The position numbers were made by a program, and so were the translations under genes. A stretch of DNA of 49,302 bases. Origin: Candidatus Nomurabacteria bacterium RIFCSPHIGHO2_01_FULL_40_20. GTDB taxonomy: Bacteria; Patescibacteriota; Minisyncoccia; Phycocordibacterales; UBA9973. Shown here piece by piece: positions 776-49,302 of the stretch; within the stretch, counting starts at the first letter, position 1; the number at the start of each line of letters is the position of its first letter. Under the pieces are notes generated by a model. That model had not been told where the DNA came from. It was given only the letters and a program-made list of their open reading frames with translations, and searched no databases. Where the stretch lies: contig MFTO01000001.1 of assembly GCA_001786835.1 (NCBI GenBank), positions 1 through 49,302 of the forward strand, given 5' to 3'.

Positions 776-3700
776 ATGCAAAAGAGGAAAAGGCAAAGCG
801 TTCGGCTGTCTAAAAATATTGTGCCGATAAAATATGATATCAAGCTTCATCCGGACTTGGAGAATTTTACTTTTAGAGGTGAGGAAGTCATAACCGTTGA
901 CCTAAAAAAAGAAACTAAAGAAATTACTCTCCACTCTAAAGAGATAGATATAGAAACTGCGAGAATCGGCGAAGAGTTTACTAAAAAGATTTCTTATAAT
1001 CAAAAATCTGAAACAGCTACTTTCGTATTCGCAAAAAAAATCAAAAAAGGAATGCATACGCTTACCATAACATTTCAAGGCATTCTAAACGACAAAATGC
1101 GCGGTTTTTATAAGAGTTCCTATATCTACGAGGGCAAGGTGCACCATATCGCGACCACGCAGTTTGAGGCCACAGACGCGCGCCGAGCTTTCCCTTGCTT
1201 TGACGAGCCGGCGCAGAAAGCGGTTTTCCATGTGTCGCTCGTCGTGCCGAAAGGCAAAACTGCAATCTCAAATACTCTGCCGATTTCAAAAATTGAACAT
1301 GAAGCTGGTTTTGAGGTTATAAAGTTTTCTCCCACTCCCAAAATGTCCACCTACCTTCTGGCTTTTATCGTCGGAGATTTTGAATACATTGAGAAAAAAT
1401 CAAAACGTGGTGTGCTGGTGCGAGTGTATACAACAGCCGGCAAAAAACATCAAGCAAAGTTTTCCTTGGACACGACGGTGAAAATGTTGGATTTCTATGA
1501 AAAATATTTTAATATTCCGTATCCGCTCAATACGCTCGACATGATTGCGATTCCGGATTTCTCTTCGCTCGCTATGGAAAACTGGGGCGCAATTACTTTC
1601 CGCGAAGTAGGGCTTTTGGTGGACGAAAAACACACTTCCACTGGGAGCAAGGAATTAATTGCCGAAGTCATCGCGCATGAACTCGCCCATCAATGGTTTG
1701 GGAACTTGGTTACTATGGAGTGGTGGACACACCTCTGGCTCAACGAAGGCTTCGCTTCCTATATTCCCTACCTTGCGATAGAAAAAGTTTTCCCAAAATG
1801 GAATACTACCTTCTGGCTTTTATCGTCGGAGATTTTGAATACATTGAGAAAAAATCAAAACGTGGTGTGCTGGTGCGAGTGTATACAACAGCCGGCAAAA
1901 AACATCAAGCAAAGTTTTCCTTGGACACGACGGTGAAAATGTTGGATTTCTATGAAAAATATTTTAATATTCCGTATCCGCTCAATACGCTCGACATGAT
2001 TGCGATTCCGGATTTCTCTTCGCTCGCTATGGAAAACTGGGGCGCAATTACTTTCCGCGAAGTAGGGCTTTTGGTGGACGAAAAACACACTTCCACTGGG
2101 AGCAAGGAATTAATTGCCGAAGTCATCGCGCATGAACTCGCCCATCAATGGTTTGGGAACTTGGTTACTATGGAGTGGTGGACACACCTCTGGCTCAACG
2201 AAGGCTTCGCTTCCTATATTCCCTACCTTGCGATAGAAAAAGTTTTCCCAAAATGGAATATTTGGGAGAGATTTGTCACCAATTCCCACGGCACCGGCTC
2301 GGCGCTTCGCTTGGACTCTCTTGTCAACACCCACCCCATAGAAGTAGAAGTGTACCATCCGGACGAAATCGGAGAGATTTTTGATGAAGTTTCTTATGCT
2401 AAAGGCGCGTCCGTTATCCGTATGCTCGCCGAATACATTGGCGAGAAAAATTTCCGAGATGGCTTGCGTTATTATTTAAAAAAGCACAGTTATAAAAACA
2501 CCGAGACTGTGCACCTCTGGCAAGCTTTTGAAAAAGTCTCTGGCCTACCTGTGCAAAAAATGATGCAAAACTGGACAGGCAAAAGTGGTTATCCGCTCAT
2601 CCGCGCTTCACTCACCTCACCACTTGGTACTCCGAGTACCAAGTTGATACTTTCGCAAGAGCGATTTTTCCTGAGTCCTGTTTCTAAAGCCAAAAGTAAA
2701 GACAAAACGATTTGGCAAATACCAATAACTCTACAATTCAAAAATTCGTCTAAAAATTTAGTGCAGAAACACTTTTTGAGCCGACTTTCGCAAGCTGTCG
2801 AGCTGAGAATGAGCGATTTTTCACCAGAAAAATACGCGACGGCGAAAAAAGTTGTTTCAAACGATTTTTGTATTAAAATTAACGCAGATGAGGCCGGATT
2901 TTACAGAGTGGCATACAGCAAAGAACTTTTGGATAAGCTCCACTCCCCTGTCGCTAAAAAAATCCTCTCTCCCATAGATCGGCTCGGAATTGTGCGGGAT
3001 TTGTTTGCTCTTGCGGAAGCTGGAGAAATTGAGACTACAGAAGTTTTGCAATTTCTCTCTGCTTACAAAAATGAAGATAGCTTTATAGTTTGGACGGAAA
3101 TCGCCGGAGGAATTTCTCGCTTAGAACAATTACTCGCAAAAACATCTGCGAAAGATGATTTGAAGAAATTTATCATCAAACTTTTCTTGCCAGTTTTTAA
3201 AAGATTGGGTTGGAACAAAAAGAAAAACGAAGAACACAGCGATACCCTTCTGCGCACTATTGCCATCTCTAAATTAGGCAGAGCCGGACACTCTAGCGTT
3301 ATCAAAGAAGCTCGCAAAAGATTTGCTTCCTTGAAACGAGGAGCGCATATGAACCCTGATTTACGGAGCGTAATTTATAGGGTTGTCGCTATTAGGGGAG
3401 GTAAAAAAGAATTTGATTATTTTATTAAAAAATACAAAGAAGAAACTTTACACGAAGAAAAGAATCGCATCGGAGGCACGCTCGGAGATTTCCAAAGTGA
3501 TAAAATTCTCTGCGAGACGGCAAACTTTGCGCTCTCCCCGCATGTTCGCACGCAAGATACCCCAAGTATCCTAGCGGGTCTTGCGCTCAATCCTCTTGGG
3601 CGAATGATTTGGCTCAAATGCATAAAATACAACTGGGATACTTTCCTTTCCCGCTATGGAGATGGCGGACATACCCTTTCTCATCTAATTCAACCGATAG

Positions 3701-3876
3701 CTGTCTCCCCCGAGAAAAAACATCTAGAATACTTCAAAACCTTCTTCGCCTCTCGCCCTGCCCCTGGCGCCCTACGCACCATAGAGCAAGTCCTAGAACG
3801 CATGGAGAACAATGTCCTCTGGCTATCGCGGAACGGGAAAAAGATTAGTAAATACTTATATGGTAGAAAAATTTAA
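776..3876 (+). CDS. pepN: M1 family (puromycin-sensitive/ERAP1-like) aminopeptidase, split into two ORFs by a 455-bp internal tandem duplication
   Basis: TQFEATDARRAFPCFDEP, AMENWG, HELAHQW..18..E motifs; removing one copy of the duplication gives a single 881-aa ORF. Confidence 0.9.
1351..2260. repeat. Exact 455-bp tandem duplication (1351-1805 = 1806-2260)
   Basis: Both copies run from ctaccttctggc to cccaaaatggaata; the ORF track shows identical shadow ORFs at an offset of 455. Confidence 0.97.
2622..2644. repeat. In-frame palindrome in pepN (11-bp arms)
   Basis: acttggtactc-c-gagtaccaagt, encodes LGTPSTK. Confidence 0.8.
2735..2874. mobile_element. About 140-bp MITE/RPE-like hairpin element read in-frame within pepN
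   Basis: Terminal inverted repeats aattcaaaaattcgt / acgatttttgtatt, nested gaaacactttttg / cgaaaaaagttgtttc and cgatttttc / gaaaaatacg. Confidence 0.55.
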
Positions 3877-3896
3877 AATTTGTTATAATACATAGC

Positions 3897-4802
3897 ATGA
3901 TGCGAGAATTAAGAGCAGGAAAAGGAGATTCTTTCATATATGAGGAAGATGTAACGCCAGCACTCGATAGATATCTCGAAGAAATTGGTAAGATACCTCT
4001 ACTTACTTCAGATGAAGAAGTTGATTTGGCAAAAAAAATAAAACAAGGAGACCAAAAAGCTCTAGAAAAATTAGTAAAAGCTAATCTACGTTTTGTAGTA
4101 AATGTGGCCAAACAATTTAGAGGTAGGGGGTTATCTTTTCAAGATTTAATAAATGAAGGTAATGGAGGGCTAATAAAGGCCGCTGAACGTTTTGATGAAA
4201 CGAAGGGTTTTAAATTTATTTCCTACGCAGTTTCTACAATTCGCACAAAAATAAATGAAGCTGTAATGGAATTTGGACGACTTACAAGAAAGCCCACTAA
4301 TGTTAATAAGGGCTTTACAAAACTTAACGAAACAAAACTCCAAAAGGAACAGGAATTAGGACAAGAATTATCTGTATATGAATTAGCTCATCTACTAAAG
4401 GAAAATCCAGATAAATCTTATATAAAAAATTTAGACCAAACATTAGACATTAGTACTAAACATACATCAATTGATGCACCTATAGTGTTTGACGACAAAG
4501 ATTCTCCAGCTATGGTAGACAACTTGGCGGACACATCTTCAAAAAATCCAGACTACGAATTAGAACACAACGAATCTTTAAAAAAAGAAATCAATACTAT
4601 ATTAAAAACATTTCCTGAAAAACAAAAGCAAATAATAGAACTATTTTTCTTTGATCCTGAACTTGGTTCCTTAAAAAACAAAGAAGAGAAATTTAAAGCA
4701 ATAGCTACTAGAATTGGTAGCGAAGTTAAGTGGACAAAAAGAGGGTATCGTATGGCAATAGAAAAATTGAAGAACTATTCACGTTTAAGAGAATATTTTT
4801 AG
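3897..4802 (+). CDS. Sigma-70 family RNA polymerase sigma factor (short RpoD/RpoS-like), divergent in regions 2.3-2.4 and 4.2
   Basis: LDRYLEEIGKIPLL, LVKANLRFVVNVAKQF, DLINEGNGGLIKAAERFDETKGFKFISYA. Confidence 0.9.
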   Translation: MMRELRAGKGDSFIYEEDVTPALDRYLEEIGKIPLLTSDEEVDLAKKIKQGDQKALEKLVKANLRFVVNVAKQFRGRGLSFQDLINEGNGGLIKAAERFDETKGFKFISYAVSTIRTKINEAVMEFGRLTRKPTNVNKGFTKLNETKLQKEQELGQELSVYELAHLLKENPDKSYIKNLDQTLDISTKHTSIDAPIVFDDKDSPAMVDNLADTSSKNPDYELEHNESLKKEINTILKTFPEKQKQIIELFFFDPELGSLKNKEEKFKAIATRIGSEVKWTKRGYRMAIEKLKNYSRLREYF

Positions 4803-4809
4803 ACGATTC

Positions 4810-5085
4810 CTAAATTCTTTTATTCGCGATTTCGTATACGACACTGCGGTGAGCGATTACAAATATTTTAACCCTTTTCCCTTCTATGCAAAAAACTACT
4901 CTATAATCCCCTACTCTCAATTTGAAATAACCTTTGAGTGATCTGCGAAGTGGTTTTCCATATAGGCTTGGCTCCGTAGTTAATTTTATTTCTATGTCTT
5001 GTTTTATACGTTTTTTATAGAAACTAGATATTTTTGGAATATCTTTCTTTACAACTTCGTCTGCGTATAATATTTCATAATTCAT
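4810..5085 (-). CDS. RelE/ParE family type II toxin
   Basis: 91 aa, YGKPLRRSLKGYFKLRVGDYRVVF...IAHRSVVY. Confidence 0.9.
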   Translation of the reverse strand: MNYEILYADEVVKKDIPKISSFYKKRIKQDIEIKLTTEPSLYGKPLRRSLKGYFKLRVGDYRVVFCIEGKRVKIFVIAHRSVVYEIANKRI

Positions 5086-5097
5086 ACAGTCACCGTT

Positions 5098-5319
5098 TTA
5101 CGCCCAAGCTTTTTTATGGCTATAAAAACGTGCTTTCTTATGATCACGCTTTTTTGCAATTTCACCGAGAACTATGTCTTCTTCTTGTTCCAGAGCTAAG
5201 GCTAAAAGATATACAGCTTTTGTAGCCATTGGAACACTGTCGCGCTTAGAAATACGAGATAGTAAAATATCTAAATCAGGCGACAATGAAATATTTAATC
5301 TTTTCTTTGTTGTAGGCAT
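5098..5319 (-). CDS. Ribbon-helix-helix antitoxin
   Basis: 73 aa, KKRLNISLS beta strand, acidic C-terminal half, directly upstream of the toxin. Confidence 0.8.
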   Translation of the reverse strand: MPTTKKRLNISLSPDLDILLSRISKRDSVPMATKAVYLLALALEQEEDIVLGEIAKKRDHKKARFYSHKKAWA

Positions 5320-5324
5320 ATCCT

Positions 5325-5355
5325 AAGTGTATCAAAAGTGTATCACCTGTGTCAA
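5325..5355 (-). promoter_or_regulatory. TA promoter TTGACA-N18-TACACT with aagtgtatca direct repeats (probable autoregulatory operator)
   Basis: Repeats at 5325-5334 and 5336-5345; -10 lies 6 nt before the ATG. Confidence 0.65.
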
Positions 5356-5392
5356 ATCCTAATCAATAAAGTTATCCACACCCGAGCTAAGG

Positions 5393-5428
5393 ACTTTAGT
5401 TGACTAAAGAACTTTAGTATGCTAAAGT
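5393..5428 (+). promoter_or_regulatory. yerC promoter (TTGACT-N17-TAAAGT) overlapped by two tandem ACTTTA-N6-TAAAG operator palindromes
   Basis: actttagttgactaaaga (5393-5410) and actttagtatgctaaagt (5411-5428). Confidence 0.75.
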
Positions 5429-5467
5429 CGTTAGGTAAGAGAGATAATACAAGAATAATACAAGAAT

Positions 5468-5836
5468 ATGAATATATACGATTTAAATAAACAAGTGAAA
5501 ATTGACTGGAAAGAGAAGAAAAACAAGCAGTTGGTGCGTTCCCTGCTTGCCCTTAAGACTCCCCTAGAAGCAGAGCGGTTTCTGCGCGACCTGATGACCG
5601 AACCGGAAATCAAAGAATTTGCTAACCGCCTAGAAGCGGCTAAATTGCTCTCCAAGAATGTCTACTACGACACCATCATCGAAGACACTGGCCTCTCTTC
5701 TGCTACCATTGCTCGCATCAAAAAGTGGCTCCTAGGGCCTCTTGGGGGCTACCGTTTAATACTTACTCGCTTATCGAACCATCACAATCCTACCAAACTT
5801 GGGAAAGGATTGTCTTTCAGTGGTGCGCCGAAGTAA
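5468..5836 (+). CDS. yerC: TrpR-like YerC/YecD (HisR-like) repressor
   Basis: FLRDLMTEPEIKEFANRLEAAKLL...TGLSSATIARIKKWL...GGY. Confidence 0.88.
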   Translation: MNIYDLNKQVKIDWKEKKNKQLVRSLLALKTPLEAERFLRDLMTEPEIKEFANRLEAAKLLSKNVYYDTIIEDTGLSSATIARIKKWLLGPLGGYRLILTRLSNHHNPTKLGKGLSFSGAPK

Positions 5837-5905
5837 TAAACAAAGGCGACTAGCATAATTGGAAACCAACCCCTTCTCAAGTTTGAGAGGGGTTTCTTTA
5901 TTGTT
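5780..5905 (+). promoter_or_regulatory. Putative His-sensing transcription attenuator overlapping the yerC 3' end
   Basis: His-His codons 5780-5785; caatcct/aggattg hairpin; 5794-5812 complementary to 5867-5885; terminator 5862-5896 followed by a U-rich tract. Confidence 0.7.
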
Positions 5906-5980
5906 TCCTGAACAATTAAGCGGTTGCTATATAACCGAATTAACAAAAATAGCGAATTGTACATTTAAAATTTAATACAG

Positions 5981-6460
5981 ATGGAAAATAATGTAAGATT
6001 AGGCTTCACGAAAAGGTATGCTGTGAGGTTAAAGAACACTAGTCCTGAAACTATTGAAAAAATTATAGTCAGGATGAACCAAATTGAAAAAGAGTCACTT
6101 GATGATTCCTTTGAAGTACATGAAGTTATTAAAAAAATATCTGAATTGTATTTCAAAAATGAATCAGGTAATTTTTTTAGTCTAGAGGAAGATGAGGGTA
6201 AGATAGTTTTTGCGTATCCATACTATCCTAATTACTACACATCTTTCATTACAGAAAATGAAATAAGATTGATAATTGACCAAATTATCAATAGACTTGA
6301 AGAAGTTGTGGAACTCAGAAAATTCAAGAGAAGGATGTCTTGGTTTTATCTTTGGTTTAACCTTTACTCTTATCCTATAGTTGTAGAAATTGATTTACTT
6401 TTTAACCCTTCGAAAGAATTGGGAAATCAGTATGAGGTTAAACTTCGCAATGATAAGTAA
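5981..6460 (+). CDS. Hypothetical protein (AT-rich)
   Basis: 159-aa ORF, no motif recognised. Confidence 0.6.
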   Translation: MENNVRLGFTKRYAVRLKNTSPETIEKIIVRMNQIEKESLDDSFEVHEVIKKISELYFKNESGNFFSLEEDEGKIVFAYPYYPNYYTSFITENEIRLIIDQIINRLEEVVELRKFKRRMSWFYLWFNLYSYPIVVEIDLLFNPSKELGNQYEVKLRNDK

Positions 6461-6536
6461 AAACTTGAAAATAAAAAGGTTCATTGCTTGAGTACCTGTA
6501 AATCGAGAGCAAAAAACAATAAAAACTAAATTAAAC

Positions 6537-12233: not shown

Positions 12234-13583
12234 CTAATATCCATCACTTCCCAACCTTTCATCAATTCTATTCATATCGCGCGGAAACATGGAGGCTTCG
12301 CGGATATTTTTGAGTCCCAAAAGTTGCATAGTCATCCGTTCCGCGCCAAAGGCAAAGCCACCTTCGGGCGGTACTCCGTATTTGAAAGCCTCCAAAAACA
12401 TTTTTATTTTTTCCGGATCCATTTTCCATTCTTCCACATGCTTCATCAACTGATCATAATCACTAATTCTTCGGCCTCCCGAGAGCCATTCCACTCCACG
12501 GCAGAGCAAGTCCATGCCTTCATTGTATTCGGGCTCCTCGGGATTCGGATACACATAAAAGGGCTTTTTGCGCGTAGGGTACCCATAGATAAATACAAAG
12601 TCCGAGCCGGTTTCTTCTTTGATTATTTCACAAATCTGACGTTCATCTTCCGGATTGGTATCTTTCTCACCCCTGACATCGCGTTTAAATTTTTCAAAAA
12701 TTCTCTGTTGAACTTCACGCAAAGACAGAGTCGGAGTTTTTTCTATCATCACAGGTATGGTAGCGCCTAAAATTTTCAAATGCTCTTTATTTTTTTCTTC
12801 AACTTGTTTTAAAATAAACCGCACTGTTTCTTCTGCCATATCGCGCACGTCTTCCCATGAATCTATAAAACTCATTTCGGCATCAAGCGAAACAATCTCA
12901 GTCAGATGCCGAGTAGTGGAAGAAGGTTCCGCGCGAAAAATTTTATTTACAGAAAAACAGCGTTCAAAAGCAGACATGACAATTTGTTTATAAAGTTGAG
13001 GCGATTGAGTCAGATATGCTTTTTTGTCAAAATAACTCACTTGAAAAACTTCGGCCCCACCTTCGGCTGTCGCGGGAGTAATAGCTGGAGCTTGGAATTC
13101 AAAAAACATATTTTTTTTCATAAACTCTCTGAATGAATCAATAATAGTCTCTTGCACTTTGAAGACTGCTTGGATTTTCGGATGGCGCAAAACCAACGCT
13201 CTGTTATCCAGCTCTGTAGTGAGCTCTAGATTATAACCCTCAAGCGACATATCAAAAGGCAGTTCATGAGCGGGACTTAAAACCTCTATGCTCACAACTT
13301 CCAGCTCAATGTCGCCATTTTGCACATCCGGATTTATATTTTTCTCCGGTCGTTTGTTCACAATGCCTGAAACTTTTAAAACCCACTCCGGTCTGATTTC
13401 TTTTGCTTTTTCTATTGCTTCTGTGTGACTCGGCAAAACTACACACTGTACAATACCCGTCATATCTCGAAAATCGAAAAAGACCATCTTGCCCTGGTCA
13501 CGCCTAATATTTACCCAGCCCGCCAGAACAACTTCTTTGCCGATGTGTTCTTTTAAGTTTTTAATAAAAACTCTATTTCGCAT
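12234..13583 (-). CDS. aspS: Aspartyl-tRNA synthetase, short archaeal/non-discriminating type
   Basis: OB fold, AEGGAEVF, QSPQLYKQ, FRAEPSSTTRHLTE, GVPPEGGFAFGAER, FPRD. Confidence 0.93.
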   Translation of the reverse strand: MRNRVFIKNLKEHIGKEVVLAGWVNIRRDQGKMVFFDFRDMTGIVQCVVLPSHTEAIEKAKEIRPEWVLKVSGIVNKRPEKNINPDVQNGDIELEVVSIEVLSPAHELPFDMSLEGYNLELTTELDNRALVLRHPKIQAVFKVQETIIDSFREFMKKNMFFEFQAPAITPATAEGGAEVFQVSYFDKKAYLTQSPQLYKQIVMSAFERCFSVNKIFRAEPSSTTRHLTEIVSLDAEMSFIDSWEDVRDMAEETVRFILKQVEEKNKEHLKILGATIPVMIEKTPTLSLREVQQRIFEKFKRDVRGEKDTNPEDERQICEIIKEETGSDFVFIYGYPTRKKPFYVYPNPEEPEYNEGMDLLCRGVEWLSGGRRISDYDQLMKHVEEWKMDPEKIKMFLEAFKYGVPPEGGFAFGAERMTMQLLGLKNIREASMFPRDMNRIDERLGSDGY

Positions 13584-13647
13584 CCCATTAGAAATTTTAA
13601 TTTATAACTCTTATTTCCATTGCCCGCCGATTGAATTTCTAACGGGA
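13583..13647. repeat. 65-bp element with 14-bp terminal inverted repeats in the aspS 5' region
   Basis: tcccattagaaatt ... aatttctaacggga (1 mismatch). Confidence 0.75.
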
Positions 13648-16237: not shown

Positions 16238-16354
16238 ACCATCTATACTAACATACTTCGGCCTACTCAGCATAAATATATTTGTCCACATTTTAATAAC
16301 ATAGAACTCCCCTATTTACCTTTCTCTTTTTTTCTCTTGTGCTAGGATGAAAGT

Positions 16355-22304: not shown

Positions 22305-23717
22305 ATGTCAATCCAGTTTTACAACACTCTCACGCGCCAAAAAGAAGAATTTGTGCCTATCAACGCTAGCGAAGTCAAGTTTTACAGTTGCGGGCCAACG
22401 GTTTACAACTACCCACATATTGGAAACTACCGAGCTTACACTTTTGCCGATATTTTAAAACGGGTGCTTTTATACAATGACTACAAAGTGAAGCACATCA
22501 TGAACATCACGGACATTGACGACAAAACTATTCGCGACTCACAAAAAGAAGGAAAAAGTTTGAAGGAATTCACCGAGTTTTATACGGAAGGTTTTTTGGA
22601 AGATGTAAAAAAACTAAACATTCTGCCTCCAGAAAAATTCACCAAGGCCACAGACTACGTGGATGAAATGGTGAAAATTGTGGAGACACTTCTCAAAAAA
22701 GGCATTGCTTATAAAAGTGAAGACGGGTCTATTTATTATGATATTAAAAAATTTCCAAATTACGGCAAACTCTCTCGCCTCGTTTTAGAAGAACAAAAAG
22801 AAAACGCGAGCGGTAGAATCAAGACCGACGAATACGACAAAGAAAACGCGCAAGATTTCGCTCTTTGGAAAGCGTGGGATGAAAATGATGGCGAGGTTTT
22901 CTGGACCCCGCCCTTCGCGAAGGGCGGGGGGGCAACCTCTTTAGGCAAAGGACGACCCGGCTGGCACATAGAATGCTCCGCTATGAGTATGGCAAATCTG
23001 GGTGAGCAAATAGATGTGCATACTGGTGGAGTGGACAATATATTCCCTCACCATGAAAACGAAATCGCCCAGAGTGAAGGCGCCACCGGCAAGCAATTTG
23101 TAAAGTACTGGGTGCACAACGAATGGGTCTTGGTAGATGGCAAAAAAATGGCAAAGTCTGCGCACAATTTTTATACTCTCAAAGATTTGACCGATAAAGG
23201 CATTGATCCGCTCGTTTACCGTTTTTGGCTACTGATGGCAAACTACGGCACGCGGGTAAACTTCGTCTGGGACGCGCTCAAAGCTTCCGAAGTTGCGCTC
23301 AAACGTTTACAGCGACTTTATTTGGAGCTAGGACCCTCCGACGCTAAAGCTTTGGAGGGCAAGGAAGAAGTAGGGAGAATAGATGAGAATTATAAAAAGA
23401 AATTCAAAGAGCATGTCAGTAATGATCTAGATACTCCTCGCGGACTCTCCACGCTGTGGGATTTAATAAAAGATGAAAATATCCCCGACGCCGACAAGAA
23501 GGCAACCATCCTAGACTTTGATAAAGTGCTAGGTCTCGGCTTTGCGGATTTAAAAGAAGACATAATTCCAGAAGAAATTACTAAGCTCGTAAACGAACGC
23601 GCCCTCGCTCGCCAAAATAAAGACTTTAAACTTTCTGACGACCTCCGTACGCAAATAAATTCTCTTGGCTTTGATGTGAAAGACACCGACCTAGGCCAAA
23701 AGGTTTCAAAAATCTAG
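22305..23717 (+). CDS. cysS: Cysteinyl-tRNA synthetase
   Basis: CGPTVYNYPHIGN, DFALWK, GRPGWHIECSAM, FPHHENE, KMAKS. Confidence 0.98.
   Translation: MSIQFYNTLTRQKEEFVPINASEVKFYSCGPTVYNYPHIGNYRAYTFADILKRVLLYNDYKVKHIMNITDIDDKTIRDSQKEGKSLKEFTEFYTEGFLEDVKKLNILPPEKFTKATDYVDEMVKIVETLLKKGIAYKSEDGSIYYDIKKFPNYGKLSRLVLEEQKENASGRIKTDEYDKENAQDFALWKAWDENDGEVFWTPPFAKGGGATSLGKGRPGWHIECSAMSMANLGEQIDVHTGGVDNIFPHHENEIAQSEGATGKQFVKYWVHNEWVLVDGKKMAKSAHNFYTLKDLTDKGIDPLVYRFWLLMANYGTRVNFVWDALKASEVALKRLQRLYLELGPSDAKALEGKEEVGRIDENYKKKFKEHVSNDLDTPRGLSTLWDLIKDENIPDADKKATILDFDKVLGLGFADLKEDIIPEEITKLVNERALARQNKDFKLSDDLRTQINSLGFDVKDTDLGQKVSKI
22906..22929. repeat. Perfect 24-bp palindrome in-frame in cysS
   Basis: ccccgcccttcg|cgaagggcgggg, encodes PPFAKGG. 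Confidence 0.85.
23334..23363. repeat. Hairpin element in-frame in cysS
   Basis: ccctcc-gacgctaaagcttt-ggaggg-caag, encodes PSDAKALEGK. Confidence 0.7.
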
Positions 23718-24170: not shown

Positions 24171-24206
24171 TTTTTCATTCTAACATTCTATAGAACATTG
24201 GAATGA
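24171..24206. repeat. 36-bp imperfect palindrome, identical copy at 32399-32434
   Basis: tttttcattctaacattctatagaacattggaatga. Confidence 0.9.
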
Positions 24207-24208
24207 CT

Positions 24209-25324
24209 TTAAAGTAGTTTTACAATATCGTGATACGTCACCACGAGCATGAGGATGATAAGGAGCGCAAAGCCGATGGTGTTGGTGATGTTAAAGATTT
24301 TTGGATTTATTCGCGAGCCTTTTATTTTTTCAATAAGGAGAAAGAGCAGTCGTCCACCGTCGAGCGCCGGAAATGGAATCAGGTTTATGATGGCGAGGTT
24401 GATAGAGATAAGCGCCGCGAAAGATAGGAGGTATACAAAACCAAACTGCGCTGCATCCCCCACGATGCCAACGATGCCAACAGGTCCAGTAACTGAATCA
24501 AAACTCCCCTCGCCTTTAATTCCGTCCGCAATCAGCGTATAGAGCCCTACTGCAGTGCCTTTAGTCACAGAGAGGTTCAGCTTCATTCCTTGCCAAAGTG
24601 AGCTAAATAAAGGCAATTTGAGCGTTCCTACTGTGTCTAGAGCCACTCCTATCAAAGGACTCCCAGTTTCAGAGTCTGTTTTCGGAACAATCTCTACGGT
24701 ATTTAATTTATTTTCTCTACCTCGCAGATAGCCAACCTCTACCCCATCCTCACCAGAATTTTCAGAAATAAATTCTTTGAATTTCTCTGGAGTTATATTC
24801 GGTGCTTCTAAAAAATTATCCTCCCTGTTTGCTAAATAAACCACTTTGTCTCCCGACTCCAGCCCTGCAATTTCTGCCGGAGAATCTTTGAGCACGGAGA
24901 CTATCAACAAATTTGTATCTTTGAGTTCATATCCCGCCGGCGCGTTTTGAAGCGACATCGGAAGCCCAGACATAAAACCAACAGAAAATAAAACCCAAGC
25001 CAACACAAAGTTCATAAACACTCCCGCGAAAAGAACAATCGCTTGTTGCCATCGAGGCTTGTTTACAAAACTTCTGTTTGCATCGGGTCCGGTAGTATTT
25101 TCTGCATCCGGATTTTCTCCGAAAATTTTTACAAATCCTCCAATCGGAAGCCAATTTAGGGTATACTCCGTGTCCCCTTTTTTAAAAAGTGTCGCCGCTT
25201 TCGGCGGAAAACCAAAACCAAATTCGTCCACCCGAATATCAAATTTCCGCGCCGTAAAAAAATGCCCCCACTCGTGGACCAAGACTAACACTAGTAAAAT
25301 TACTAAAAATATAATTACGGACAT
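24209..25324 (-). CDS. rseP: RIP metalloprotease RseP (M50 with PDZ)
   Basis: HEWGH, PIGGFV, NLIPFPALDGG. Confidence 0.95.
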   Translation of the reverse strand: MSVIIFLVILLVLVLVHEWGHFFTARKFDIRVDEFGFGFPPKAATLFKKGDTEYTLNWLPIGGFVKIFGENPDAENTTGPDANRSFVNKPRWQQAIVLFAGVFMNFVLAWVLFSVGFMSGLPMSLQNAPAGYELKDTNLLIVSVLKDSPAEIAGLESGDKVVYLANREDNFLEAPNITPEKFKEFISENSGEDGVEVGYLRGRENKLNTVEIVPKTDSETGSPLIGVALDTVGTLKLPLFSSLWQGMKLNLSVTKGTAVGLYTLIADGIKGEGSFDSVTGPVGIVGIVGDAAQFGFVYLLSFAALISINLAIINLIPFPALDGGRLLFLLIEKIKGSRINPKIFNITNTIGFALLIILMLVVTYHDIVKLL

Positions 25325-27105: not shown

Positions 27106-27657
27106 CTAATTCATAGACTCCTTTTCTTTCTTGCTAAAAATTGCTTCCAGATTTTTGTTGGTTTCGTCAATAATTTTTTGTAAGTCGTCTTTGGCGCGGA
27201 ATTTTTCGTCTTCGGTCATCTTGCCAGCTTTTTCTTGTTCTTGAATATCTTCCCAAATCTCTTCGCGTAGTCGACGCACTGAAATTCTAGCTTCTTCAAG
27301 TTTCTCTTTTAATACTTTTACCAAACTCTGCCTGTTCTCGGTCGTGAGTTGCGGAAAAATAACTCTGATTCCTGCCTCGTCCACCGCAAGCGAAAGACCT
27401 AGGTTTGCGCCAGCAATTGCTTTCTCTATGCCCTTTATCTGACTCTTGTCCCAAGGCGAAATACGCAAAGTCTTCGGGTCCTCAATCGCGATAGAAGCCA
27501 CATTTTTAAGTGGAGTATACGCGCCATAAGACTCTACCGATATGCCGTCTAGCGCCATCGGCGACGCTCGGCCGATATTTAGTTGGTTGTATTCCTTACT
27601 CAAAAAATCTTCTATCTTTTTAACCTCTGCCTTAAAATTTGAAAAATTGTATTGCAT
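27106..27657 (-). CDS. frr: Ribosome recycling factor
   Basis: GRASP, ISPWDKS, PQLTTENR, EEARISVR. Confidence 0.97.
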   Translation of the reverse strand: MQYNFSNFKAEVKKIEDFLSKEYNQLNIGRASPMALDGISVESYGAYTPLKNVASIAIEDPKTLRISPWDKSQIKGIEKAIAGANLGLSLAVDEAGIRVIFPQLTTENRQSLVKVLKEKLEEARISVRRLREEIWEDIQEQEKAGKMTEDEKFRAKDDLQKIIDETNKNLEAIFSKKEKESMN

Positions 27658-32398: not shown

Positions 32399-32434
32399 TT
32401 TTTCATTCTAACATTCTATAGAACATTGGAATGA
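32399..32434. repeat. Second copy of the 36-bp palindrome
   Basis: Identical to 24171-24206. Confidence 0.9.
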
Positions 32435-32439
32435 TATTT

Positions 32440-33141
32440 TTAGAGCTTCTCTGGTATCAAAAGCGCTACGGATTCAATCAAAGTCTTTGGAGAGGAGCCC
32501 GATTGACGGAGAAACTGCCGAGCTTTCATTATCTGCTCAAACACTCGTACACTTTCTTTACCCCATAGGAATTTCCTATGTGGGGCATGGAGGGCAAGCT
32601 CAAGAGTATTTAGAAATTTTAAGGCTTTACTCCTGATAGAGTCGTCCATTATTTCATTTTCCGGCTCTACCAGTAATTCTTTTAAAAAATCAATTCTACC
32701 TCTCAGTGAGAGTTTTATAAATTTTTCCCCCAGAGCTATATCTCCTTTTTTATCGTCCGCAGAAATAACATAGAACCTAGAAACCAAAGTCGGCAGAAGC
32801 GCGTTTACATCCGGAACAACCAGAAAAAAGTGAGTATTCTCTATCGGCTCTTCAAAGAGCTTGAGCATTGTCCCTTGCGCGTCTAGAGAAAAATTATTAG
32901 CGCAGATTATAAAAAATTTCTTCTCTCCTATTCCCCGCTCGCTACTCATGTCTTTGAGAGAGAAAGCTTCGTCAATTTTAAAATTATCAATGGCTATGTG
33001 AACCAAATCTGGGCTCGAAGGAGAAATATCAAAAATTTTCAAAAATTCCAAAATGGATTTTGTGATTTCTTCCCTCGCTCCTTCCACTAAATAAGCATGA
33101 TGTAGATTTTCTTTATCAAAATGTTTATTGATTAGGTTCAT
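32440..33141 (-). CDS. holB: DNA polymerase III delta-prime-like subunit
   Basis: LHHAYLVEG, AQGTMLKLFEEP, LLPTLVSR. Confidence 0.8.
   Translation of the reverse strand: MNLINKHFDKENLHHAYLVEGAREEITKSILEFLKIFDISPSSPDLVHIAIDNFKIDEAFSLKDMSSERGIGEKKFFIICANNFSLDAQGTMLKLFEEPIENTHFFLVVPDVNALLPTLVSRFYVISADDKKGDIALGEKFIKLSLRGRIDFLKELLVEPENEIMDDSIRSKALKFLNTLELALHAPHRKFLWGKESVRVFEQIMKARQFLRQSGSSPKTLIESVALLIPEKL
32561..32586. repeat. Palindrome in-frame in holB
   Basis: ccccataggaa-t-ttcctatgtgggg, encodes PHRKFLWG. Confidence 0.7.
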
Positions 33142-43232: not shown

Positions 43233-43625
43233 ATGAATAAAACAGCATACAATATTTTAAGAGTTGGCTTGGGAATCACTTTTCTCTGGATTGGGATAAT
43301 CATTCTCAAAGAACCGGAGGCTTGGGGAAGCTATATTCAAAATTGGGTGGTAGAGTTATTGCCACTGCCAATAAAAGACATCATGATAAGCACGGCTATT
43401 CTAGACATTATCATTGGCTTTTTATTACTTATAGATACTTGGGTGTGGATTGCCGCGATTGTCGGCGCGCTTCACTTGGTAGTGGTGCTCGTGGTAAGTG
43501 GAATTACCGAAATCACAGTGCGAGACCTAGGCATAATGGCTGGAATGTTTGCCCTGTTTGCGCAAACCCTACCTCAATCTATAATTCAAAAGTTCAAACG
43601 CAAACCTACGCCACTAGCACCGTAA
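43233..43625 (+). CDS. DoxX-like membrane protein
   Basis: LRVGLGITFLWIG...VRDLGI. Confidence 0.75.
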   Translation: MNKTAYNILRVGLGITFLWIGIIILKEPEAWGSYIQNWVVELLPLPIKDIMISTAILDIIIGFLLLIDTWVWIAAIVGALHLVVVLVVSGITEITVRDLGIMAGMFALFAQTLPQSIIQKFKRKPTPLAP

Positions 43626-44277
43626 ACTCTCCTTTTTGTTTTACCGGATTTTTAGTTAGATATTCCAGCATTTCTTTTGCCGAGCCGGTTTTTATTTCTT
43701 CGTAAATTTTGGTGAGCTCGCGCGCGAGGCAGACTTTTTTGTCGGGGCAAAATTTTTGCAAAGATTCCAGAGTTTTCAAAATCCGATGTGGGGATTCGTA
43801 AAACACGACTGTGCGTTTAGACTGCGCAATTTCTTTAAACAAAGTTTCTCGGCCCTTTTTGTGTGGTAGAAATCCTAAGAATGTAAATTCATGGGTCGGA
43901 AGTCCGGACGCCGAGAGCGCAGTAATCACCGCTGTCGCTCCCGGAATCGGAATGACTTCTACATCCCTAAGCTCTGTTTTTATTTTAGACACAAGCATCG
44001 CACCGGGGTCAGATATCCCCGGAGTGCCAGCGTCTGATACCAAAGCCAAATCTTTACCACTTCGCAAGAGCTCAAAAATTTTGTCAGTTTTCCCAAGCTT
44101 ACTCTGAGCGTGATAACTCATAGTGGGCTTTTGGATGCTGTATTTTTGTAAAATTTTACCTGTCTCCCTAGTATTCTCACAAAGCACCAAATCCACGCTC
44201 TTGAGCGTTTCTATAGCCCGAAGCGTTATATCCCCCATATTTCCAATAGGCGTGGCTACTACGTAAAATTTGCTCAT
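43606..44277 (-). CDS. rsmI: 16S rRNA C1402 2'-O-methyltransferase
   Basis: VATPIGNMGDITLRA, VSDAGTPGISDPG, YESPHR, RELTKIYEE. Confidence 0.97.
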   Translation of the reverse strand: MSKFYVVATPIGNMGDITLRAIETLKSVDLVLCENTRETGKILQKYSIQKPTMSYHAQSKLGKTDKIFELLRSGKDLALVSDAGTPGISDPGAMLVSKIKTELRDVEVIPIPGATAVITALSASGLPTHEFTFLGFLPHKKGRETLFKEIAQSKRTVVFYESPHRILKTLESLQKFCPDKKVCLARELTKIYEEIKTGSAKEMLEYLTKNPVKQKGEFTVLVA

Positions 44278-44344
44278 TTGGAAATATTAGCATATTTTTG
44301 ACAAGAAACTACAATTATGACAATATATAAAAAACATTGAAATC

Positions 44345-44755
44345 ATGAAATGTACAACACTCGTTCTTTTGCTGACAATAATATCGGCAGGTTGTGGCAT
44401 GGAGCTAGAAATGGTTCTGCCAGAAACTGTGAATATTTTCGATGGAAAGTACTTTTCAGTCGTTTACGTTCCGAAAGGGGCAACTCACTCCTTATTGTCA
44501 GGTGGTATCGCGACTGAAAGTGGGTGGATAATTCAAAAAAAAGAGACTGCTATGAATATCGACGGATACTATTACCTCGATATGGGGCCTGAAAAAGGAA
44601 AGCGCTTAATTCCTGAATTGCATGGAAAATCCCTTGGATGGGTATTTCTATCAGTGGACAAGGAGGCTCATTCTGGTGATATGGTTGCGGTCGACGATTA
44701 CCAAGGTGACTGGCAACATATTGTATATGAGGAGGTGGCCATCTTGCGAATCTAA
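44345..44755 (+). CDS. Putative lipoprotein
   Basis: MKCTTLVLLLTIISAGC lipobox; own terminator. Confidence 0.65.
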   Translation: MKCTTLVLLLTIISAGCGMELEMVLPETVNIFDGKYFSVVYVPKGATHSLLSGGIATESGWIIQKKETAMNIDGYYYLDMGPEKGKRLIPELHGKSLGWVFLSVDKEAHSGDMVAVDDYQGDWQHIVYEEVAILRI

Positions 44756-44777
44756 AGATATCGGTTTTTCGGATAGT

Positions 44778-44816
44778 GCCGGGGTTGGTCCATTGGACAA
44801 CCTCGGCTATTTTTTT
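44778..44816 (+). terminator. Intrinsic terminator
   Basis: gccggggttg-gtccattggac-aacctcggc followed by a T tract. Confidence 0.8.
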
Positions 44817-44878
44817 ACCTAAAAAGCCATAAAATAAGGGGTTTCTACACCGGGTTTTCCACAGTTTCAGTGTTGACA

Positions 44879-45125
44879 TTGACAAAAGGGCTTAAATATG
44901 ATAGGATACTTGTGAACTCAATAAATCTTTGACAAATGTTTTCATAAGAGAGTTTTTGGTGACCCCAGTCCCCTATTTTTAGGAGCTTGAGGTAACCAAA
45001 AATCTCAAAACGTGAAAACTACAAAAATTATTCCGAAAGAAGAAGAAATCTCAACAGGAGAAATCCTTCTGTGTATTTTTTTCTTATTTCTCGTACTTTG
45101 TCTGGTATCAAACATTATGCCAGAT
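44879..45125 (+). promoter_or_regulatory. Promoter TTGACA-N17-TAGGAT followed by a long structured 5' leader
   Basis: -35 at 44879-44884, -10 at 44902-44907; hairpins at 44938-45019, about 45040-45084 and 45101-45124. Confidence 0.55.
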
Positions 45126-45182
45126 CCGCATTCGCCGTTATTTCAAGAATGATTTCATCACCACCGAAAAATCTGAAACACA

Positions 45183-45659
45183 ATGAAACAGCTTTTTTTG
45201 CTCTTCCTTATTTGTTGTGCAATCTTTTTTCTGATTTCATGTCAGAAGGAAGAATATGCATCACCCATGTCCACCACAGAAACTAAACCTGCAGACACTC
45301 TCTGCTTCAATGTCAAGATTCTTTATCAAGACTCCAGTAGCATGGAGATAAAGATTCTAGCTGCCTACGATCCCAAAACTTTGTATTTCACAGAGTTTGA
45401 CTCCACAAAAATGATGTTGGACACGGTAGCTGTCTTCCACGCCAATTTAGTTGTGGGTTCCTACTACTGGGAAATTCAAGAGTGGGTAAACGGAATGATG
45501 GTGACAATAGAAGTACCCATTACCGTTACTTGGTGCACAGAGCCAGTAGCTTATGTCACCTTGTCGGTTCCTTGGGGAACCTGCGGAGTCATAGGTTATG
45601 TACGTGGGGAGAGGTGTAAAATACCTCTCGACGGTCCGGGATCAATAACCCCGGGATAA
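45183..45659 (+). CDS. Putative lipoprotein (Bacteroidetes-style signal)
   Basis: MKQLFLLFLICCAIFFLISCQKEE. Confidence 0.7.
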   Translation: MKQLFLLFLICCAIFFLISCQKEEYASPMSTTETKPADTLCFNVKILYQDSSSMEIKILAAYDPKTLYFTEFDSTKMMLDTVAVFHANLVVGSYYWEIQEWVNGMMVTIEVPITVTWCTEPVAYVTLSVPWGTCGVIGYVRGERCKIPLDGPGSITPG

Positions 45660-45691
45660 AAATAAATTTTTCCAGTGCAAGCCGAAAGGCA

Positions 45692-45731
45692 AGAGAGCCT
45701 TGTTCACATTTGTGACAAGGCCTCTTTTTTT
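45692..45731 (+). terminator. Intrinsic terminator
   Basis: agagccttgttcac-attt-gtgacaaggcctct followed by a T tract. Confidence 0.8.
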
Positions 45732-45739
45732 GCCCAATT

Positions 45740-46204
45740 TTAATTTTCGGGATGCTTTAGAGTATGCAAATGGGAAAGTATGCCTATCGCTATCGCGATG
45801 ATGAGAATATTTTTTATAATATATTGCCCTTCGAGAGTCGGCACCAAGAAACCATCCCATGTAAACTGCGGAAGTAAAAATAAAGGCATAATCGTAGTAA
45901 TCAAATGTAGGGCTAAGACAAAAATAGCAAGACGTTCCAAATGCGGAATGATAAATAAAATACCGATAACCATTTCAAGAAGTCCAAAAGCAACCAGAAA
46001 AGATTCTGGGCTTATCCCCGGCATCGTAGCTTTAAGGAGAGCCACAACTAAAGGGCTTGCAGGCGAGAGCGCAAAAACTTTTAATATTCCAAACCAAAAA
46101 TAAATGAGAAATATGGCAAAGCGCGAAAACGGCATCGCCCATTTTTTGGCAAAGTGAATCATTTTTTCATCCCAAGTTTTTAATTTTCCATGAATTTCGT
46201 TCAT
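45740..46204 (-). CDS. DoxX/YkgB-like membrane protein
   Basis: RFAIFLIYFWFGILK..SPA...PTLEGQYIIKN; start trimmed to MNEIHG. Confidence 0.8.
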   Translation of the reverse strand: MNEIHGKLKTWDEKMIHFAKKWAMPFSRFAIFLIYFWFGILKVFALSPASPLVVALLKATMPGISPESFLVAFGLLEMVIGILFIIPHLERLAIFVLALHLITTIMPLFLLPQFTWDGFLVPTLEGQYIIKNILIIAIAIGILSHLHTLKHPEN

Positions 46205-46220
46205 ACAAATATTATAACAC

Positions 46221-46667
46221 TTACTTCCTATACTTTTTCTTACGCCACTTGTCAGCAATCTTTACTCTTGTAAGCGAGCGTTCGAGTTCGGCCTCAAAGT
46301 GTTCAAAATCAACTGTGCCTTTGTCTTCCATCATCTTGCGAAGCTCTTCGCTTTTCGCTTTAGCTTTGGCAATTGCTTCATCTGTGATATCCCCTACATG
46401 TTCGGCAAAATCCGCCAAAACTGCGACTTCGGTATTGCCGTCCGCCCCAATTTTCACTTCCACAAACCCTCCCGCCACAGCAAAAGGAATCGGCTCGCCA
46501 CCCGACATAGCTACAATGTCCCCTGACTTAAGCCCAACGATTATCGGAATATGTTCCGGCAAGACCGTAATCTCGCCTTCCAAGGTAGGCATAGTTACTT
46601 GGTCCACCATCTCCTCTAGCACCAAGCGCTCTGGGGTGACTATTTTTAAATTAATTTTCTTAATCAT
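46221..46667 (-). CDS. atpC: ATP synthase F1 epsilon subunit
   Basis: KIVTPER, GEITVLPEHIP, AGGFVEV. Confidence 0.95.
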   Translation of the reverse strand: MIKKINLKIVTPERLVLEEMVDQVTMPTLEGEITVLPEHIPIIVGLKSGDIVAMSGGEPIPFAVAGGFVEVKIGADGNTEVAVLADFAEHVGDITDEAIAKAKAKSEELRKMMEDKGTVDFEHFEAELERSLTRVKIADKWRKKKYRK

Positions 46668-46752
46668 TAGATTTAAGATTAGAGATTTTAGATTTGAGTA
46701 ATTAGATTCATTTGCATCTCACTACCAACTTTAATCTAAAATCTGCCAACTA
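46668..46752. repeat. 7-nt periodic AGATT/AATCT inverted repeat array between atpD and atpC
   Basis: AGATT at 46669, 46676, 46683, 46690, 46704; AATCT at 46733, 46740. Confidence 0.75.
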
Positions 46753-48174
<1,422 letters not shown>

Positions 48175-48537
48175 TTATTTCTTTGGTTTTAGTAATAATG
48201 ATTTTTCAAGACCGTATAACATTTTTGCACATTCTTCATATTCGTTATAAAACTCCTCAAATTCTTTCTTTTTTAAATATCCTTTCTTGGTCGCAATATC
48301 CAAATGATGCAATGTTTCTCTTAATTCCCCTTGTGATCGACTTATACATTCTGTAAAAATAGTCGTGTGTTTATTACCAAAACCTTCTGCTAAATTCGCT
48401 GGTATAGAATTAGAAGATCTTCTTAGCTGAGAACCAAGTTCGTATAATTCATATTTAGGAAATGTTAATGTTAAATCGTTCATTTTTAGTGCTAATATTG
48501 AAAGTCTTTTATAAACTTGTAAATCATTGAATTTCAT
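48175..48537 (-). CDS. Four-helix-bundle protein (23S rRNA IVP-like family)
   Basis: FNDLQVY...FPKYELYELGSQLRRSSNSIPANLAEG. Confidence 0.92.
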   Translation of the reverse strand: MKFNDLQVYKRLSILALKMNDLTLTFPKYELYELGSQLRRSSNSIPANLAEGFGNKHTTIFTECISRSQGELRETLHHLDIATKKGYLKKKEFEEFYNEYEECAKMLYGLEKSLLLKPKK

Positions 48538-48581
48538 CTCTAATCTTATATTTTTTAATTTAATCTGTAATCTTTAATCTG

Positions 48582-49302
48582 CTAACTAATGCTGACCATT
48601 CCTGCGCTTATTTCACTTATCTCCTGTGTAATGCCTGCTTGACGGGCTTTGTTAAATACTAAAGTTAGGTCATCTATCATTTCGCCGGAAGCCTCGGATG
48701 CATTTTTCATCGCTACCATTCTCGCGGATTGCTCGGAAGCATTAGACTCCAACATCATCTGATATATCTGCATCCTAGTCAATTTCTCCGCCAAGCTCCC
48801 AATCAGCGCATTCACATCCCCTTCTAACAAATAGTTCCCCCCCTGCTCTCTCTGCGGAAGACCGTCTTCCGCAGAATTTTCGGCTAGATTCTCAATAAAT
48901 TCTTTCAGTTCAGCTTTGGAAACCGGCAAGATTTGTTTCAAATGTGGCTTTTGGAAAAGCGCAGAGACATAGTCGGTGTAAGCCACTATTACTTTATCAT
49001 AGGTGCCCTTGGTGTATTCATCAATAAGCATTTTAGAAATTGGCAAAATGTCGCGGAGAGTTATGTGGTCTGGAAGTTCTACGAAGCTTGCGATAACATT
49101 TTTGCCAATTCTGCGCATCGCCCCGTCCCCCTTCTTACCAATAGTAATAACGTCAAAGACTGTCTTTGACATGTCGGATTTTAGGAGAGTAAGGGCTTTT
49201 TTGATAACTTGCGCATTGTAAGCTCCGCAGAGTCCACGATTAGATGTTATAAGTACAAGCAGTACTTGCCCTGAGCTCGTCGAAGGATTTTTTTGAACAA
49301 AA
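48582..49302 (-). CDS. atpG: ATP synthase F1 gamma subunit (5' end outside the window)
   Basis: ITSNRGLCGAYN, ASEQSARMVAMKNAS, NKARQAGITQEISEI. Confidence 0.97.
   Translation of the reverse strand, partial: FVQKNPSTSSGQVLLVLITSNRGLCGAYNAQVIKKALTLLKSDMSKTVFDVITIGKKGDGAMRRIGKNVIASFVELPDHITLRDILPISKMLIDEYTKGTYDKVIVAYTDYVSALFQKPHLKQILPVSKAELKEFIENLAENSAEDGLPQREQGGNYLLEGDVNALIGSLAEKLTRMQIYQMMLESNASEQSARMVAMKNASEASGEMIDDLTLVFNKARQAGITQEISEISAGMVSIS
48851..48875. repeat. Palindrome in-frame in atpG (12-bp arms)
   Basis: tctgcggaagac-c-gtcttccgcaga, encodes SAEDGLPQR. Confidence 0.85.
49152..49178. repeat. Palindrome in-frame in atpG
   Basis: gtcaaagac-t-gtctttgac overlapping gacatgtc, encodes SDMSKTVFD. 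Confidence 0.75.
49265..49286 (-). repeat. CTTCG..CTCAG-type element in-frame in atpG
   Basis: ccttcgacgagctcagggcaag encodes PSTSSGQ; related to 47807-47830 and 16256-16276. Confidence 0.7.

Follow-up and report, generated by a model that had tools for sequence, protein, structure and literature searches.

The first contig of a Candidatus Nomurabacteria genome (RIFCSPHIGHO2_01_FULL_40_20, contig MFTO01000001.1), a stretch of 49,302 nucleotides (nt) referred to here as the window, carries short DNA palindromes inside the reading frames of core genes, including pepN, cysS, holB and atpG. These in-gene palindromes are probably repetitive extragenic palindrome (REP)-type elements, short DNA hairpins that disperse within a genome and that in this case have mostly entered coding sequence. 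Their families are common to unrelated genes and to many species of the genus, and the copies lie in loops whose length varies among orthologues, with translation in each of the three frames. Among the genes for REP-associated tyrosine transposases (RAYTs) that were examined in relatives, most have a hairpin at an end, about one third have one and the same family at either end, and in many a translated copy lies inside the gene, which is the layout of a REPtron. Two window families (pepN 2622 and atpG 48851) match hairpins that flank RAYT genes of relatives. The palindromes are thus real and mostly explained, as a known kind of repeat in a little-described setting and not as a new kind of element.

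The genome under study (G000) is a metagenome bin of 550,711 bp in 21 contigs, estimated to be 78% complete and with a coding share of ~91%; the window is its contig C1. It was compared with a panel of genomes of the same genus (n=61). In what follows, G denotes genomes of this genus, C contigs and L extracted loci. An initial annotation of the window had proposed a set of palindromic elements, and each claimed interval was screened for its best perfect-arm hairpin, written as arm-loop-arm in nt:

2622..2644, pepN: 23-nt perfect palindrome ACTTGGTACTC-C-GAGTACCAAGT, 11-1-11, of the ACTTGG-N11-CCAAGT family, coding for part of SPLGTPSTK
2735..2874, plus strand, pepN: hairpin element of ~130 nt with terminal inverted repeats (TIRs), translated in frame, with its best-conserved core at 2753-2854
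13583..13647, intergenic: inverted repeat whose 14-nt arms are 93% complementary and 37 nt apart
22906..22929, cysS: 24-nt perfect palindrome CCCCGCCCTTCG/CGAAGGGCGGGG, 12-0-12, within a 27-nt insertion (9 aa, TPPFAKGGG)
23334..23359, cysS: degenerate 12-2-12 palindrome CCCTCCGACGCT-AA-AGCTTTGGAGGG, 10/12 pairs, within a 30-nt insertion (10 aa, PSDAKALEGK)
24171..24210, intergenic: imperfect palindrome TCATTCTAACATTCTATAGAACATTGGAATGA, copy 1, of a separate family
32399..32438, intergenic: imperfect palindrome TCATTCTAACATTCTATAGAACATTGGAATGA, copy 2
32561..32585, holB: near-perfect palindrome CCCCATAGGAATTTCCTATGTGGGG, perfect over 8-1-8, coding for APHRKFLWG
47807..47830, minus strand, atpD segment DGSVILTTG: no palindrome, best hairpin 4-2-4
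48851..48875, atpG: 25-nt perfect palindrome TCTGCGGAAGAC-C-GTCTTCCGCAGA, 12-1-12, of the GCGGAAG-N5-CTTCCGC family
49152..49170, atpG: 19-nt perfect palindrome GTCAAAGAC-T-GTCTTTGAC, 9-1-9
49265..49286, minus strand, atpG segment PSTSSGQ: no palindrome, best hairpin 3-0-3

The nine in-frame hairpins that had been proposed are therefore a mixed set. Five are near-perfect palindromes (2622, 22906, 32561, 48851 and 49152), one is degenerate (23334) and one is the ~130-nt hairpin/TIR element (2735-2874), but the segments at 47807 and 49265 are not palindromes. With arms of 9 to 12 nt around centres of 0-1 nt, the elements at 2622, 22906, 48851 and 49152 have the size and shape of REPs, that is, of hairpin-capable palindromes of ~20-40 nt, and the holB element is a single substitution away from a perfect 23-mer on contig C3. 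Among the intergenic elements that had been considered related, 13583-13647 is an inverted repeat and those at 24171 and 32399 form one family, but 16256-16276 was ruled out as a palindrome, its best hairpin being 3-2-3. The TCATTCTAACATTCTATAGAACATTGGAATGA family has five copies in G000, all intergenic (the others are at C5 35246, C15 23162 and C15 23446), and contigs assembled from other sequencing runs stop near both of its window copies (24171 and 32399).

The number of such hairpins is far above chance. G000 contains 113 perfect hairpins with an arm of at least 9 and a loop of up to 6 nt. With an arm of at least 10 there are 65, of which 33 are in open reading frames (ORFs), 24 are intergenic and 8 are at gene edges. 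The chance control consisted of synonymous-codon shuffles that retain every protein and the codon usage of each gene. In the coding sequence of the window, three palindromes with an arm of at least 11 and a loop of at most 1 nt were found against 0.03 expected, a count reached in none of 200 shuffles; genome-wide, coding sequence holds 35 palindromes (arm at least 10, loop up to 6 nt) against 4.75 expected, reached in 0 of 40 shuffles. Since the observed counts exceed those of all synonymous shuffles, the palindromes do not occur at the frequency of codon-shuffled controls, an outcome that would have spoken against the initial annotation; coding DNA has them much more often than the shuffled sequences do.

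The position of the palindromes relative to orthologues is also informative. When host proteins were aligned with orthologues from the same genus, most in-gene palindromes were found at sites where the orthologues are either shorter or of variable length. In PepN, the excess over 8/8 orthologues is 6 aa, exactly at the 2622 palindrome. The palindrome at 22906 in cysS lies in a clean 27-nt insertion (+9 aa) that is missing in 12/13 orthologues, while the element at 23334 lies in a clean 30-nt insertion (+10 aa) missing in all 13. In an AlphaFold2 (AF2) model of this protein (mean predicted local distance difference test score, pLDDT, 83.2) both insertions are in coil, and two of the three segments with pLDDT <50 (205-209 and 346-354) coincide with them. 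HolB is 3 aa longer than 13/13 orthologues at the 32561 palindrome, in a loop of variable length. The loops that hold the atpG palindromes at 48851 and 49152 also vary, without a clear net gain in length, and the atpG gene of G013 carries a related palindrome at the 48851 site that differs from that of G000 by a compensating change from an A:T to a T:A pair. The idea that palindromes add peptide loops to core proteins is borne out by the extra loop segments in pepN, cysS and holB, but it does not extend to cases such as miaA, discussed below, where sequence is swapped at constant length. Two of the segments without a palindrome are longer too: the one at 49265-49286 adds 4 aa to AtpG relative to 9/13 orthologues, and that at 47807-47830 gives AtpD ~5 aa more than is found in most of 13 orthologues. 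The thirteenth cysS orthologue, from G001 (L060), bears a different insertion of 8 aa (DPSTWLGT) at the exact 22906 insertion point, so that this loop has been hit twice.

As the initial annotation had supposed, there are several families of tiny palindromic elements, and the ACTTGG, GCGGAAG, cysS and holB types recur across genomes of the genus. ACTTGG...CCAAGT has seven copies in G000; spacers of 3-25 nt were allowed in the search, yet every copy has one of 11 nt and is 23 nt in total, with centres that differ between copies yet are self-complementary. Six of the seven copies are in coding sequence and not extragenic, as the REP name would imply. The family is present in 26/61 genomes with up to 19 copies, against 0 for a reversed-pattern control, and in 26 extracted loci 28/33 copies are in open frames that span 80 aa or more. 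Copies are translated in three frames, as LG..SK, L...PS and TW..QV, which means that the conserved unit is the nucleic acid and not the peptide. The atpG 48851 type, GCGGAAG-N5-CTTCCGC, has four copies in G000 and occurs in 16/61 genomes (0 in the control). The cysS 22906 type, CCCCG-N4-TCGCGA-N4-CGGGG, is likewise found in 16/61 (0 in the control), and the holB type in 8/61 at up to 3 mismatches (0 in the control). Thus, the ACTTGG and GCGGAAG families are dispersed and multi-copy, as REPs are, with copy numbers that are low relative to classical REPs. Further in-frame palindromes of G000 are found in fmt, gyrB, ligA, mnmA, gdh, dnaE, uvrC and the genes for a class I aminoacyl-tRNA synthetase, an SMC protein and an FAD oxidase. 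In G015, a GCGGAAG-family hairpin is found near the N-terminus of atpG (L083; G015:C4:95368-95386; peptide AEVRLPQ), elsewhere than in G000 and G013.

By eye, the window families lack the GTAG/CGTC foot. The flanks of ACTTGG copies often read C[C/A]...[G/T]G, with C at position -2 in 60/110 flanks, so that one end reads GTGG or GTTG, and other families of the genus have double feet of the GTGG...CCAC or GTAG...CTAC type (L047, L058).

The connection with transposases comes from relatives of G000. In G057, an ORF of 212 aa lies between two copies of ACTTGGACATCSGATGTCCAAGT, with a third copy inside the ORF. It matches the Pfam family Y1_Tnp (PF01797) with 33.9 bits (cut-off 23), and its only NCBIfam match, below cut-off, is 'REP-associated tyrosine transposase' (NF047646). 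The top Foldseek match of its AF2 model (pLDDT 86.7) is 4ER8_A, the E. coli RAYT bound to a REP hairpin (E 3.6e-5), followed by the TnpA proteins of IS608 and ISDra2. In 19 such RAYT-like sequences, H81 and H83 (NHFHF) and Y105 and Y108 (GYTxYFN) are invariant. The HUH motif and the candidate catalytic tyrosines are thus conserved, the catalytic one presumably being Y105 or Y108. Homologues occur in 48/61 genomes of the genus, with roughly 190 copies in total and up to 12 per genome, not the single gene that is typical of RAYTs.

These genes are closely associated with hairpins. Of 48 loci with enough flanking sequence, 38 have a perfect hairpin at an end of the RAYT gene, 17 have one at both ends (of the same family in 16), and in 21 the gene itself contains one. 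Near the ends of RAYT genes there are 3.74 hairpins per kb, compared with 0.37 per kb elsewhere, and every RAYT paralogue has its own hairpin. In G002, members of the sub-family of the pepN 2622 palindrome are found both within a RAYT gene and next to it (L044), the G000 copy on C8 matches RAYT flanks in G061 (L045), and at G001:C83 and G053:C1 RAYTs are flanked by copies of the atpG 48851 type. The initial annotation had suggested looking in this genome for a RAYT/IS200-type HUH transposase with such hairpins on its flanks; one can be found for the pepN and atpG families, but in congeners and not in G000 itself. GAAGAC and GGTCTC motifs occur within some palindromes, and Type IIS restriction sites had been considered as a candidate explanation, which was dropped after the link to RAYTs emerged.

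The spread of these REP-type elements might proceed as follows. A RAYT-like enzyme would bind the hairpin in single-stranded DNA and cut and rejoin it, moving or exchanging copies in trans. Because ~91% of the genome is coding, most landings would hit genes, and only copies that preserve the frame, contain no stop codon and fall in tolerant loops would survive. The copies in G000 would then be either served by a RAYT encoded in the unassembled 22% of the genome or relics.

Several observations weigh against the REP explanation. One concerns the enzyme: for G000, a search for Pfam families detected no RAYT, a protein search returned 0 candidates, and a 20-sequence profile run at maximum sensitivity reached no better than E 0.48 against the six-frame translation. 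The initial annotation's statement that the window holds no transposase therefore stands, and the same is true of the assembled genome (78% complete). Only 12/113 hairpins of G000 match any hairpin in 49 sampled RAYT loci, two of them apparently spuriously. No RAYT was found in the 8 loci of the holB family (0/8), although one RAYT of G014 has a flanking hairpin whose 17-nt core is one base off the holB element. Among the 15 loci of the cysS 22906 family there is a single RAYT fragment, 1.3 kb distant, and in three of them the palindrome CCCCGTCGTTCGCGAACGACGGGG adjoins the start of a small GIY-YIG nuclease gene (L186 1501-1801, L194 1231-1536, L195 1419-1899), being present on both sides of it in L195. 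In G000, CCCCGTCGTTCGCGAACGACGGGG was not found within 400 nt of the two GIY-YIG genes (C13 58902-59159, C9 557-820). The assignment of an enzyme thus covers the pepN and atpG 48851 families, and those of cysS and holB are outside it. The copy number of a family, 1-19 per genome, is far under that of classical REPs. NF047646 gives 23-30 bits for 4/4 RAYT-like proteins against its curated cut-off of 80, and Protein Data Bank sequence searches with one of these proteins and with a 19-sequence profile returned nothing relevant, the match being obtained by the fold search alone. In favour of the link to RAYTs, 69/95 of the ACTTGG copies outside G000 are in the 12 genomes that have a close RAYT (E <= 1e-60), but this threshold was picked post hoc and the related genomes are not independent. 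Contigs from four runs included no variant lacking an element, with the limits that contigs drop rare variants, so that the result has no bearing on polymorphism, and that the pieces listed did not span 23334-23359. Finally, the atpG 49152 palindrome and the one in miaA, which are considered below, do not look like simple insertions.

Palindromes may also arise as the operator sites of small dimeric DNA-binding proteins, with stray copies ending up in genes. The 12-2-12 layout of the cysS 23334 element would suit such a site, and a gene with a PaaX_M domain (C11 3602-4174) ends in a GAGCTCTAGAG... palindrome. Nevertheless, a dimer site needs no self-complementary variable centre, yet the centres of these families co-vary; what the pepN and atpG families flank are genes for Y1 transposases and not for regulators; and no regulator adjoins the window copies. 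It is thus very improbable that operators account for the palindromes. A 12-2-12 scan of G000 gave no convincing family for the 23334 element itself; the single relative, a weak one at C15 8702, adjoins no regulator gene. One palindrome family of G000, based on (G)AGCTCTAGAG, contains TAG (C8 14747-14772, C11 4166-4203, C13 38010-38035, C13 59930-59953 and C15 8859-8882). Its copies are at or just past gene ends and not within genes, one of them ending the PaaX_M-domain gene, and palindrome families that contain a stop may be restricted to gene ends.

Another way of making palindromes is local template switching, in which fold-back copying during replication or repair creates them in place and nothing moves. 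The atpG element at 49152-49170 may be such a case: one of its arms consists of conserved F/V-D codons, and since it reuses them, a local origin fits better than an insertion. In G015, the CCTTTGAC word also underlies nested palindromes, which are accompanied by a 10-aa insertion. Nested or overlapping palindromes are also seen at C13 49596-49633 and in L013, L021 and L024, and the miaA palindrome substitutes sequence at constant length. As a general explanation, however, template switching is unlikely. It does not predict identical 23-mers in unrelated genes and genomes, or constant feet combined with a fixed length of 23 nt, or hairpins tightly tied to the ends of RAYT genes, and the clean 27- and 30-nt insertions in cysS were not copied from neighbouring sequence. 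The proposal that the elements are mobile or self-generating can be divided accordingly: mobile families are supported for pepN and atpG 48851, whereas self-generation was shown for no element and is plausible for atpG 49152 only. Local fold-back copying may nonetheless add to the pool of palindromes.

The model case of a slot that holds palindromes is outside the window:

Contig C18, 27330-28259, miaA: palindrome at 27600-27625, of the ACTTGG family

This palindrome occupies a loop of eight codons between GKVP and Y(K/E)FIKI, which was examined in 30 orthologues (L197-L226). A perfect hairpin with an arm of at least 7 is found in the loop in 15 of them, against 0.29 expected and a maximum of 2 in 200 shuffles. 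The length of the slot is identical in 25/30 orthologues, with or without a palindrome, a pattern that would also suit template switching. At least four palindrome families are represented, in two registers 3 nt apart. The hairpin of G014 in this slot is the one that flanks its own RAYT (L143), and G046 and G044 have an ACTTGG copy at the same place, the two differing by three compensating transition pairs. The miaA gene of G000 additionally has a 9-aa insertion, NPPSALSGG, which bears a degenerate palindrome.

Compensating changes of this kind could mean that the hairpins are retained by selection as working RNA or DNA structures that pause transcription, translation or replication, and are not passengers. 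The three transition pairs between G046 and G044, the A:T to T:A change between G000 and G013 in atpG, and the excess of hairpins at a single miaA loop are all in keeping with this. By contrast, the families found in this one miaA slot are unrelated and sit in two registers, half of the species have no palindrome there, the host genes are unrelated, and exchange or re-insertion by a hairpin enzyme would preserve symmetry too. Selection for structure is therefore quite improbable as the main cause.

In terms of REP-type elements, the miaA data point to a tolerant loop that has been occupied repeatedly or has undergone exchange. A bolder version, which we regard as doubtful, is that REP hairpins occupy fixed-length slots in essential genes, where they would be repeatedly overwritten or exchanged by the resident RAYT repertoire. 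If this were true, part of a protein sequence would be dictated by the hairpin family that the genome currently maintains, the hairpins would owe their lasting symmetry to enzyme-driven exchange or structural selection and not to chance, and such slots would offer a natural system for testing REP dissemination.

The names of the window genes agreed with NCBIfam, as follows:

776-3876: pepN, read as two overlapping frames (776-1936 and 1693-3876)
22305-23717: cysS
32440-33141: holB
46753-48129: atpD
48582-49301: atpG, truncated by the contig end

PepN reads as two overlapping frames because of a direct repeat of 300 nt (1336-1635 and 1791-2090, 98% identical), whose spacing of 455 nt is not a multiple of three. 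Either pepN has been broken by a real tandem duplication, or the repeat is an error of assembly. This suspicious duplication and the fragmented state of the bin raise the question of whether the palindromes are themselves assembly or sequencing artefacts, for which there is hardly any room: the reading frames remain open, the same families are present in up to 26/61 genomes, and contigs of other public runs hold 22906-22929 (X4) and 32561-32585 (X3, X4 and X9) unaltered. On the minus strand at 48175-48537, between atpG and atpD, there is a gene for a 120-aa four-helix-bundle protein that matches TIGR02436 (96 bits), presumably of the 23S rRNA intervening-sequence protein type.

The ~130-nt pepN element (2735-2874) differs from the rest. 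It is a structured element with TIRs and no single palindrome (fold z = -2.6), and the residues that it encodes (349-394) are missing in 4/8 orthologues and have other lengths in the remaining four. Copies that are 77-89% identical are found in G044, G005 (four), G036 and G013, and 8 long copies were seen in 5 genomes; none of this relies on G072, which is marked as unpublished. One is in frame within a 398-aa open frame of another gene, which we take to be MnmA-like, and the others are in short frames or none. The consensus ends are AATTACAAAACTC...GAGTTTTGTAATT, inverted over 13 nt and degraded in the G000 copy, and the central hairpin flips between ATTTTT and AAAAAT among copies. A search of 2600-2950 against Rfam gave no credible match. 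With TIRs, several copies and no coding capacity of its own, it has the features of a MITE (a miniature transposable element with inverted repeats). It is a second class, MITE-like or similar to the Rickettsia palindromic elements (RPEs), outside the REP explanation.

For the remaining palindromes, the implication is that a gene-dense genus of Patescibacteria, with genomes of 0.5-0.9 Mb, has a REP/RAYT system largely within coding sequence, which shapes loops of aminoacyl-tRNA synthetases, ATP synthase and proteins of replication and repair. For annotation, palindromes account for lineage-specific insertions and some contig breaks. Moreover, the mechanism of REP dissemination is described as still unresolved in the consulted part of PMC8266576, and the many RAYT paralogues, each with its own hairpin of 19-27 nt, together with slots like that of miaA, form paired natural experiments on the recognition, copying and replacement of REPs. 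No published account of such REPs in Patescibacteria was found in the literature searched.

Comparison with known systems, for which the papers cited here serve through their available excerpts, shows both likeness and difference. In the REPtrons of E. coli (TnpA_REP, 4ER8) and Pseudomonas, where REPs form paired elements called REPINs (PMC2817692, PMC3333891), there are also hairpin families, a Y1/HUH gene that has its own hairpin on its flanks and a separate hairpin for each paralogue, and 4ER8 is the top structural match to the RAYT-like protein of this genus. The present system differs in that copies are mostly in genes and translated, that a family has 1-19 copies per genome and not hundreds, and that the palindromes are perfect with centres of 0-5 nt. 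It also differs in having up to 12 RAYT-like genes, scoring below the NCBIfam RAYT cut-off, in genomes of 0.5-0.9 Mb, the usual number being one per genome according to the excerpt of PMC5581495.

The ~130-nt element is closer to RPE-1 of Rickettsia, as mentioned in PMC3733652, and to MITEs: it folds, has TIRs, and is in frame in two unrelated genes and intergenic elsewhere. It differs from them in having only 8 long copies in 5 genomes, and its aligned flanks, for which no systematic search was made, revealed no target duplication; the likeness is one of features.

For the short palindromes, a close precedent is that of intragenic REPs. As far as the excerpted text of Di Nocera et al. 2013 (PMC3733652) goes, REPs occur within genes of several species, many of these genes being for replication and repair, and the intragenic copies are a minority. 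The same text equates the intragenic RPE-4 and RPE-6 of R. conorii with REPs, which makes the analogy to Rickettsia palindromic elements drawn in the initial annotation an apt one. Both the GTAG-/CGTC-tagged REPs of that study and the palindromes of this genus are in frame in known proteins (here including holB, dnaE, gyrB, ligA, uvrC and SMC), and in both, different REPs are found at about one site of a gene in related species. In contrast, the window families show, by eye, no GTAG/CGTC tag, 6/7 ACTTGG copies are in genes, and the host is a genus of Patescibacteria. Lastly, the tnpA_REP genes of subclass 2.4, whose main hosts are Cyanobacteria and Bacteroidetes, are associated with frame-preserving REP insertions and 'double foot' REPs in the portion of Quentin et al. 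2018 (PMC6006769) consulted. The present system resembles them in layout: REP copies within RAYT genes do not break the frame, and some families of the genus have GTGG...CCAC or GTAG...CTAC feet (L047, L058).

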